Assembly: GCA_044892525.1 (NCBI GenBank)
Contig: CM097885.1
Location: 7,132,001 to 7,196,000, forward strand
Reading direction: 5' to 3'
Source: Schmidtea polychroa
Lineage: Eukaryota
Length of the DNA stretch: 64,000 nt
Every line of letters begins with the position of its first letter. Position 1 is the first letter of the stretch. The notes under the pieces are model-generated. The model was not told the origin of the DNA and did no database searches. It saw nothing but the letters and a program-made list of their open reading frames with translations. The position numbers were made by a program, and so were the translations under genes. Below, one piece after another: positions 54,203 to 55,680 of the stretch.

Positions 54203-54291
54203 ATATAACCTAAAATAGCAATGTAAATAACTGTAAATAAAAATACGAAACTGTACCAGTAATGAATATATGTATATATATAATTATAGAA

Positions 54292-55680
54292 ATGGATAAG
54301 CGACAACGAGAAGAATTCAAAGAAATTGTTGAACAAGTCAGAAAGTCCACCACAATTCGAATACACAACCATGTAACGTGTGGAATATGCAAGAGCTTAT
54401 TAAGAGAACCTCACCAAACCAGATGTGGATGCAGAATGTGCAGAGAATGTGTAGAGGAGATAATAAAGAAGGGACCACAATGGTGCCCAGTATGCAAAGA
54501 AACAATGATAACAAGTTTGGGAGATACAAACGAAGATAAAGCAGCTGTAAAAGATATGTTGAATGCAAACCTAGGATGTAAAAACACCCCATGTAATTGG
54601 CGAGGAGTGATATGGGAAGTGAGGCAACATATGGAGCAATGTGAGTATAAAATCAGTCAATGCAAACGTTGCCAAGAAGAGATTAAAGTCAATGAAGAAG
54701 CAGAACATCAAAGTCGATGCGAAGAAAGACTGGAGAAATGTGAGTATTGCGGAGAAACCGACACCTGGAAAAAACTAATCAGTCAACATCACAACATACA
54801 AGAGAAGAAAGTGTGCGCAGAATTCAGAGGAGAATGCCCCAACAAATGCGATAAACCCGGAGTAATAAAACTCGCTCAACATCTAAAAGAATGTGAAAGA
54901 AAAAAGATAACGTGTGTGCTAGGAAAATGGGGATGTCAGAAACAATTACACCGAGGGGAATTACCCCAACATCTAGCAGAAAACGTATCAACACACGCGG
55001 AAATATGGTCAACAGTATTACAAGAAAACGAAAGGAAAACCGAAAACTTAGAAAGAGAAATAGTCTCGCTAAAAGCGTTGGTAAAAGAACTATTGGAAGA
55101 AAAGGAAGCATTTGAAGAGGCGAGAACAAGTACAAAGATACAGACAGATCTAGTGGAAACTAGCAACATTATGGTGAAAGAACTACATCAAAAAGTAAGC
55201 GAATTAAACCTCAACGAATTAATACCCACGGCTCCATACATATGGAAAATAACGGGAGTAAAAGAGAAGATGCAGAGAGCGAGAAATGGAAAGGATACAA
55301 CATTACTAAGTCCAGCATTCTACTCATGGAAAAACGGGTATAAAATGAAAATGAAAGCATACCCCAATGGGGATGGAAGTGCATACGGAACGCATTTCTC
55401 AGTATTCTTCTTGATGTGCAAAGGGCTATACGACGAGTTAATAGAATGGTCATTCAAAGCAAAAATAGACCTCGCAATGATGAACTATCAAAGTATACAT
55501 GAACAGAGTTTCCATACAGCGGGAAACCTCGTATGTTACCAAAGGCCCTTGGAAGAAGAAGGACCAGCAACTGGAGCACCGAATTTCATCCTACAGCGGA
55601 AAGCAGAAGACATGACGAGAAACGACACTATATACATAAAAATAGCGGTGAGGCGAGACGGGAAGAGTAGGACTGAGTAG
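54292..55680 (+). CDS. TRAF-family protein (RING, TRAF zinc fingers, coiled coil, MATH), intronless
   Basis: CGICKSLLREPHQTRCGCRMCREC..CPVC; CPNKC; YIWKI, SPAFY..GYKM, YPNGDG..GTHFSVFF, YDELIEW. Alternative start at 54262. Confidence 0.92.
   Translation: MDKRQREEFKEIVEQVRKSTTIRIHNHVTCGICKSLLREPHQTRCGCRMCRECVEEIIKKGPQWCPVCKETMITSLGDTNEDKAAVKDMLNANLGCKNTPCNWRGVIWEVRQHMEQCEYKISQCKRCQEEIKVNEEAEHQSRCEERLEKCEYCGETDTWKKLISQHHNIQEKKVCAEFRGECPNKCDKPGVIKLAQHLKECERKKITCVLGKWGCQKQLHRGELPQHLAENVSTHAEIWSTVLQENERKTENLEREIVSLKALVKELLEEKEAFEEARTSTKIQTDLVETSNIMVKELHQKVSELNLNELIPTAPYIWKITGVKEKMQRARNGKDTTLLSPAFYSWKNGYKMKMKAYPNGDGSAYGTHFSVFFLMCKGLYDELIEWSFKAKIDLAMMNYQSIHEQSFHTAGNLVCYQRPLEEEGPATGAPNFILQRKAEDMTRNDTIYIKIAVRRDGKSRTE

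Follow-up and report, generated by a model that had tools for sequence, protein, structure and literature searches.

The window analysed here, a 64,000-nucleotide stretch of Schmidtea polychroa DNA, contains a giant gypsy LTR retroelement with a full-length TRAF gene downstream of its pol region. We describe the element as Burro-type, an assignment made by its layout as described for Burro1-4. Its parts are as follows.

32375..32378, +: left copy of the 4-bp target-site duplication CTAC (right copy 62971-62974)
32379..62970, +: Burro-type giant gypsy LTR element, 30,592 bp, recognised from its LTR pair, TG...CA ends, target duplication and domain order
32379..36579, +: 5' LTR, 4201 bp, 99.79% identical to the 3' LTR
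36587..36604, +: candidate primer-binding site, 7 nt past the 5' LTR end
37043..37522, +: accessory ORF, 159 aa, with a helical N-terminal part and an IAP-type C-terminal RING (Pfam zf-C3HC4_3, E 2.5e-8)
39438..42746, +: gag part of ORF1 with Retrotrans_gag and CCHC knuckles, closed in this copy by an in-frame stop
42747..43826, +: middle part of ORF1, no Pfam match over threshold, overlapping the next ORF in a different frame
43760..53674, +: env-pol ORF, 3304 codons (Pfam)
44273-44470, +: weak Bcl-2 match in the env-pol ORF (Pfam E 0.038, below cut-off)
45407-46426, +: Monjiviricetes-type fusion protein in the env-pol ORF (PF24664, E 7e-72, aa 550-889)
aa 1079-1170 of the same ORF as the fusion protein, +: protease (Pfam)
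47933-48409, +: reverse transcriptase (RT) in the env-pol ORF (Pfam), with RNase H next in order
49529-49825, +: integrase in the env-pol ORF (Pfam)
50744-50968 and 51767-51877, +: ankyrin repeats in the env-pol ORF (Pfam)
53843..54202, +: accessory ORF, 119 aa, without Pfam assignment
55898..56935, +: accessory ORF, 345 aa, charged, coiled-coil-like, no Pfam match
57111..57746, +: accessory ORF, 211 aa, charged, coiled-coil-like, no Pfam match
58769..62970, +: 3' LTR, 4202 bp

The two LTRs are about 99.8% alike, differing by 8 mismatches and 1 gap, and both start with TG and finish with CA. These near-identical direct repeats, their TG/CA ends and the flanking CTAC mark the element as a complete, recent insertion. 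Four accessory ORFs lie 3' of the env-pol ORF, and TRAF is the second of them. In this copy ORF1 is split by one stop and one frame change into three consecutive ORFs of 1102, 359 and 3304 codons, which we take as decay. With its ORF1 interrupted twice, this copy is unlikely to be autonomous, a point that counts against the explanation we favour below.

Several other features of the element were recorded. The candidate primer-binding site may resemble a tRNA-Pro site, and its gap from the LTR is more than usual. A GC-rich stretch (58700-58768) lies ahead of the 3' LTR, where a clear polypurine tract is not seen. The ORF at 37043-37522 finds the RINGs of cIAP1, cIAP2 and XIAP as its top PDB matches (E 3e-9 to 4e-7), and no BIR domain was found in it. 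It lacks the element's A bias at fourfold sites (p 0.002), and it may have been captured later than TRAF. Between this ORF and gag, the leader holds a tandem repeat of about 73-79 bp (38111-38411). Each LTR contains an ORF (35293-36053, 61683-62444) without a Pfam match; it has 253 codons in the 3' LTR, and the single gap shortens the 5' version to 159. An R-[IV]-x-[ML]-[ML] motif recurs at six places in ORF1 (39438-53674) and is absent from TRAF. A comparison of the gag and middle ORFs for internal duplication showed one short acidic repeat and nothing further. No tRNA was found, and there was no Rfam match in 32000-64000.

To the left of the element, a Polinton/Maverick with long inverted ends (3599-31688) encodes a double-jelly-roll capsid, an integrase with a PLA2-like domain, an A32 ATPase and a pPolB with an N-terminal zinc finger. 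Nested in its left part is a perfect 2373-bp inverted repeat with a 542-bp spacer (7430-12717), probably a gene-less foldback element. A fragment with a weak piggyBac-type DDE_Tnp_1_7 match (31758-32096, E 0.003) adjoins the LTR element, which may have inserted into a DNA transposon.

A complete TRAF protein

A preliminary description of this DNA had reported a complete intronless TRAF gene carried inside an LTR element, between pol and the 3' LTR. We confirm both points: a single 462-codon ORF lies between paired LTRs with a target duplication, in an element whose Burro type had gone unrecognised. Following the end of the env-pol ORF at 53674 come the 119-codon ORF, TRAF, the two coiled-coil-like ORFs and, from 58769, the 3' LTR. 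Both LTRs and the target duplication enclose TRAF, so it is not a resident host gene around which the element inserted. The gene and its domains are laid out as follows.

54292..55680, +: complete intronless TRAF gene, single ORF, 462 aa (Pfam, PDB matches, AlphaFold2 model, alignment)
54379..54495, +: RING with eight cysteines (C30-C68)
54577..54996, +: five TRAF-type zinc fingers (C96-H235; ligand spacing, alignment)
54985..55206, +: TRAF-N coiled coil (residues 232-305; model)
55237..55656, +: MATH/TRAF-C domain (residues 316-455; Pfam, PDB, model)

The protein has the canonical TRAF features, namely a C-terminal MATH/TRAF-C domain, a TRAF-N coiled coil before it, and an N-terminal RING and zinc fingers with full ligand sets. 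Pfam matches above cut-off comprise RING zf-C3HC4 (E 1e-4), MATH_2 (E 1e-23) and TRAF-mep_MATH (E 1.5e-22). In the PDB, the C-terminal half matches the TRAF3/TRAF2 coiled coil-MATH (E about 1e-26 to 1e-25) and the RING-zinc-finger part matches TRAF6 (E 3e-15) and TRAF5 (E 2e-13), with 8e-16 and 3.5e-14 in a second search. All 28 zinc ligands are present, eight in the RING and four in each of the five fingers, and the RING keeps the I32 and P66 positions as in TRAF6. An AlphaFold2 model built on an 11-row alignment (mean pLDDT 82.7; pTM 0.38, as expected of an extended chain) contains a continuous helix at 232-305, with pLDDT 75-92 over most of it, and a strand-rich MATH domain at 316-455. The RING-zinc finger-coiled coil-MATH architecture first read from the sequence is therefore borne out by Pfam, PDB matches, the ligand count and the model. 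ESM Atlas returned generic TRAF clusters only. No second MATH/TRAF remnant was found elsewhere in the window among 1032 frames searched, and tblastn with 167 TRAF hits gave no match elsewhere in it.

The gene more likely starts at ATG 54292 than at ATG 54262, the start given in the preliminary description. The stop-free frame (54241-55680, 479 codons stop to stop) holds both. Three homologues, P0023, P0028 and P0090, begin at the place matching 54292; other copies of the element have 1-nt and 2-nt deletions at 54263 and 54273, between the two ATGs; and the 30 nt separating the ATGs are AT-rich, spacer-like DNA.

TRAF is a family-wide gene of the element

TRAF shares the codon style of the element that carries it. 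Its fourfold sites comprise 86 A, 20 C, 28 G and 10 T, and the A share of 0.60 compares with 0.61 in RT-integrase. Fourfold make-up is indistinguishable from that of RT-integrase (chi-square p 0.65), as the A-rich style noted in the preliminary description had implied, and from that of gag (p 0.77). It differs sharply from the Polinton genes of the same window (p 6e-17), a contrast set that stands in for a true host gene.

TRAF is also present in many copies of the element. We placed contigs from 4 of 15 listed sequencing runs (3 studies; 8 of the 15 have part of the stretch) on 49400-57200. The best DNA runs may be the window's own source, and X5, X6 and X7 come from two other studies. All 30 bins were covered in each of the four runs (10092, 3586, 3673 and 574 contigs), and in all four the TRAF-covering contigs range from under 90% to over 99% identity. 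Summed depth over TRAF relative to the integrase region, which can gather sister families too, was 1.19, 0.44, 0.42 and 0.63. In X1, depth at four listed TRAF sites was 38,576-85,179, against 203-352 for 15 listed deletion-bearing contigs. If the latter are single copies, the ratio of about 110-420 would put TRAF copies at the order of a hundred, summed depth itself being no copy number. TRAF is thus a regular, family-wide accessory gene of a Burro element, and is not confined to this copy. The codon make-up and the many copies rule out that this one copy picked up a host mRNA recently.

Relatives and origin of the captured gene

The closest relatives of the element TRAF form an A-rich clade among planarian TRAFs. 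A search of 1.84 billion representatives gave P0019, with 37% identity, as its nearest full-length protein. A tree was built on 88 rows, leaving out 80 of the 167 hits that exceeded 620 aa or lacked a RING pattern; in it, the element TRAF, P0019, P0023, P0028 and P0090 form a clade with 99% SH-aLRT support. This clade is nested in a 93% SH-aLRT group with TRAFs named for Dendrocoelum lacteum and Dugesia japonica. The A-rich rows may attract one another by composition, which we count against our explanation. In a MATH-only tree of 22 rows, for which 7 of 29 were dropped on a missed MATH start (three Dendrocoelum TRAFs among them), the element joins P0019 at 93/84, short of the tool's star.

The composition of the clade points to other element-borne copies. 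Residues K/E/Q/T/R/N make up 0.46-0.55 of the four relatives and 0.44 of the element TRAF, compared with 0.34 +/- 0.02 in 76 CGH-type TRAFs. This richness in residues with A-rich codons suggests that the four are element-borne as well, and that protein collections list them as if they were ordinary genes. Three of them are partial or end in unrelated sequence. A profile search with the five A-rich TRAFs gave one further partial relative, P0169, among 19 hits. Neither the 9 candidates from viral contigs nor the 591 from metagenome contigs yielded a related locus. Longer or fused MATH forms were likewise absent from 71 candidates of 810-2310 aa, a range below the 4873-aa Burro1 polyprotein.

The RING bears on the donor. 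Its fourth ligand is a cysteine (C45-G-C47), giving CGC in place of CGH. The preliminary description had singled out this variant; it is real, but it is not special to the element. In alignment A1, all 8 homologues that cover the segment have CGC, named Dendrocoelum lacteum TRAFs among them, and among the 167 hits the fourth ligand is Cys in 21 and His in 76, with no pattern in 70. An element-specific variant is thus ruled out, and its occurrence in named planarian TRAFs suggests that the element inherited CGC from the host lineage. Dendrocoelum lacteum TRAF-2, -4 and -5 and Dugesia japonica TRAF-2-like A, which we infer from their ordinary composition to be cellular, share with the element TRAF its length class, architecture, CGC RING, the third-position cysteine of the serine triad discussed below, and the 93% group. 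In contrast, identity to the planarian cellular TRAFs is only 28-32%, and the element TRAF sits on its separate A-rich branch. The layout of the element and the named nearest TRAFs point to a triclad flatworm as host. As a separate observation, the entry for P0026, a host-type CGC TRAF, opens with about 60 residues that resemble a gypsy integrase end, with no Pfam support. It looks like either a gene-model fusion or a second TRAF capture right behind an integrase.

Combining these observations, we propose that a Burro element long ago captured a TRAF2/3/5-type mRNA of the CGC-RING planarian TRAF lineage. The captured gene would then have settled into one Burro family as a permanent accessory gene, multiplied at each round of retrotransposition. 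We are nearly certain of this capture account, in which position, family-wide presence and element-type codon use are observed, while the donor lineage and the RNA route are deduced.

TRAFs in the genomes of parasites are also known from viruses, among them ISKNV ORF111L, those of other megalocytiviruses and giant-virus TRAF-like proteins. The best named Foldseek matches in BFVD are iridovirus TRAFs (E 1e-18 and 5e-13). These differ in belonging to large DNA viruses, in their length (206-296 aa in those matches) and in their low identity (18-22%), and we infer that the viral and element captures were independent.

Signs of constraint and of expression

Two lines of evidence suggest that TRAF is under constraint: its zinc ligands are intact at 37% identity to the nearest full-length relative, and few indels or substitutions in other copies alter it. 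Across the placed contigs, 11 of the 12 listed indels (of 46) fall in the 8.3% of the sequence that is non-coding and none falls in the TRAF ORF (binomial p 1.5e-11). Listed TRAF substitutions comprise three silent and one replacement (n=4; 26% silent expected). Over all ORFs, 18 of 37 listed substitutions are silent against about 26% expected, from 40 listed of 1697. Both listings are small and chosen by support, and do not amount to a dN/dS. In env-pol only 5 of 14 listed changes are silent, which we count against our explanation. Within these small, pre-filtered samples, the intact ligands, the 0 of 12 indels and the 1 of 4 substitutions that alter TRAF speak against neutral evolution.

We weighed these data against the possibility that TRAF, once or never useful, is now simply carried along, its open frame reflecting the youth of the family. 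The 99.8% likeness of the LTRs agrees with such youth, as do the partial or unrelated ends of three of the four clade relatives. Single copies also bear TRAF-internal deletions, which weigh against our own explanation: X1 has five such joints, and one joint deleting 54596-56038, most of TRAF, occurs in X5 and X6. However, copies up to about 17% diverged hold the TRAF frame across 267-331 nt (the 267-nt contig differs at 45 letters with no gap), and indels avoid coding parts. Moreover, full codon amelioration with every ligand kept needs long selection. We therefore consider a mere passenger very improbable.

How would the gene be expressed? One candidate signal lies directly 5' of its likely start.

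54284..54291, +: splice-acceptor-like TTATAG plus 2 nt

In 4 of the 5 internal accessory ORFs, and in the LTR ORF, the ATG is preceded by T[A/T]TAG at a distance of 0-7 nt. By comparison, the motif precedes 4 of 534 other internal-region ATGs (Fisher p 1e-7, for a motif picked after seeing the starts). The motif looks like a putative 3' splice or trans-splice acceptor for subgenomic RNAs; the alternative is an AT-rich internal promoter. The joints and loose ends listed, 15 of 65 and 24 of 1346 respectively, include no splice joint at the TRAF start, which we count against our explanation. No listed run is labelled as RNA; X7, guessed to be RNA, covers all 30 bins including the spacers, and was not used as expression evidence. 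We propose that TRAF would be translated from a processed subgenomic RNA made via this acceptor-like site. That it is an expressed and selected protein is a prediction in which we have good confidence.

An altered peptide pocket and a putative survival role

The MATH domain appears to have changed its peptide pocket. We aligned it to 1ca9 (TRAF2), with the residue list from the available text of PMC6125299 and an inferred numbering offset. Hot spot 1, the hydrophobic pocket, is largely kept, with F372, L394, F407, Y416 and A429 for F410, L432, F447, F456 and C469. Equivalents of Y395 and D399 are also kept, and R393 is K355. The TRAF2 serine triad reads L413-V414-C415, so the full set of TRAF1/2/3/5 receptor hot spots for PxQE motifs is not present. 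Given the L-V-C triad and the change of R393 to K355, canonical PxQE binding is doubtful, which counts against our explanation. Five of six presumed host TRAFs in alignment A1 share the cysteine and keep the first triad serine. Unlike planarian cellular TRAFs, the element TRAF has lost that serine and also the P-D before it. It is probably a ligase-adaptor with altered partner choice, as judged from these residues.

Under our preferred explanation, the protein would trimerise via its coiled coil and MATH domain and serve as a RING ubiquitin-ligase adaptor whose peptide pocket has changed. Working beside the element's IAP-type RING and its weak Bcl-2-like cargo, it would bias stress and immune signalling so that a cell with an active element survives. 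The survival role is our first choice because of that IAP-type RING, the weak Bcl-2-like match and the reported B-IAP of Burro1, which PMC13465017 relates second-hand, in the text available, to shield stem cells from apoptosis. Host TRAF-like proteins regulate cell survival (available text of PMC7586133). Counting against it, the viral TRAF ISKNV ORF111L promotes apoptosis, through TRADD, according to the available text of PMC3352826. We give this putative role, argued from domain integrity, cargo company and the B-IAP precedent, an even chance. The whole account, from captured TRAF to fixed cargo to pro-survival ligase-adaptor, we hold to be somewhat better than evenly placed.

The same pocket could be read as that of a decoy, which would join mixed host-TRAF trimers or tie up E2 or IAP partners and, through its altered pocket, dampen immune and stress signalling. 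The coiled coil-MATH scaffold such a decoy needs is intact, and hot spot 2 has degenerated beyond the state seen in the presumed host TRAFs, five of six of which retain the first serine; in P0019 the erosion of the hot spot 2 loop goes further still. Yet the RING has all eight ligands together with I32 and P66, and a pure decoy needs neither the RING nor five fingers. Retention of hot spot 1 and of the Y395/D399 equivalents also speaks against a decoy, which we think unlikely.

Selection could instead act at the level of the host, with TRAF useful to the animal in wound or infection responses or in stem-cell survival. The B-IAP mutualism reported second-hand (available text of PMC13465017) would be a precedent, and Schmidtea TRAF transcripts are abundant, some of them neoblast-enriched (available text of PMC6109357). 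Against this stand the many young mobile copies, decayed ones among them, for which element-level selection suffices; nor is a solo, LTR-free copy in evidence. Host-serving cargo is in our view unlikely too, and a little less probable than a decoy.

Relation to known Burro elements and to the planarian TRAF expansion

The element closely matches the published layout of Burro1 (GYPSM1) and Burro-2 to -4 of Schmidtea mediterranea. In the available text of PMC6431247, these are over 30 kb long, with multi-kb LTRs, a gypsy PR-RT-RH-IN, a mononegavirus-type env in frame before the protease, a CCHC gag and ankyrin repeats. TRAF-related and IAP-related cargo is common to them and the present element, and their Bcl-2-like motif has at most a weak counterpart here (E 0.038 at the expected place, below cut-off, no PDB support). 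The SUMO-like, dUTPase-like and BIR motifs of Burro elements gave no Pfam match in the 16 + 12 proteins of the window scanned. The same text describes the in-frame env between gag and pol as the first such case, and credits Jurka 2007 with MATH_TRAF_C in the Burro1 polyprotein and Grohme et al. 2018 with the same motifs in Burro-2 to -4. It also records the proposal that Burro cargo meddles with apoptosis and ubiquitination.

Burro ORF1 is a single ORF of about 5000 aa; here three ORFs add up to the same size, a break that we ascribe to decay of this copy. In Burro1, MATH_TRAF_C lies inside the ORF1 polyprotein, whereas here a separate full-length TRAF gene lies 3' of pol. In the Burro-like element of Dugesia tigrina, according to the same available text (PMC6431247), MATH_TRAF_C is likewise in a separate accessory ORF and absent from ORF1, and the gag has two to three CCHC knuckles as well. 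Its accessory ORF lies upstream of ORF1, with only MATH named, whereas the present gene lies downstream of pol, with RING, five zinc fingers and coiled coil.

The literature thus already records TRAF-related sequence in Burro elements. New relative to the literature found are the full-length TRAF downstream of pol, the distinct A-rich TRAF clade, the acceptor-like accessory ORF starts and the link to the TRAF expansion. Within that literature, no paper links Burro to the expansion and none describes a full-length TRAF in the downstream position, although Grohme 2018 and Lee et al. 2026 may show it.

The planarian TRAF expansion has been a puzzle of its own. The available text of PMC6109357 counts 121 MATH domains and raises the question of their meaning, and that of PMC7586133 leaves the count open at 121-282 transcripts, mostly redundant or partial; a word search for transposons in the latter came back empty. 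It is plausible that retrotransposition swells the apparent host TRAF repertoire, and the idea fits the four A-rich database proteins that group with the element. The preliminary description had proposed this, and also that the present copy may modulate innate signalling. In the available text of PMC6824462, traf, ankyrin and E3-ligase mRNAs are among the SMEDWI-3 piRNA targets, with Burro not mentioned. These target types are the cargo types of this element, and from this analogy we propose a link.

A more far-reaching and tentative possibility is that much of the planarian TRAF expansion, which stands at 121 MATH domains and up to 282 contigs, consists of Burro cargo or its fallout and owes nothing to innovation by the host. 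The same would hold for much of the traf, ankyrin and E3-ligase mRNA that SMEDWI-3 makes into piRNAs. Burro families would then hold a captured TNF-receptor survival kit (full TRAF, IAP-type RING, Bcl-2-like motif and ankyrin repeats), expressed through subgenomic RNAs that are spliced or trans-spliced, as in a complex retrovirus, and would use it to keep host stem cells alive.

A multi-copy, element-borne full-length TRAF offers a simple, testable explanation for some of the planarian TRAF expansion. RNAi and expression data on planarian 'traf' genes may thus partly concern a retroelement. With this gene, the story begun by the Burro B-IAP would gain a second signalling gene, a complete one from immune and cell-death signalling.
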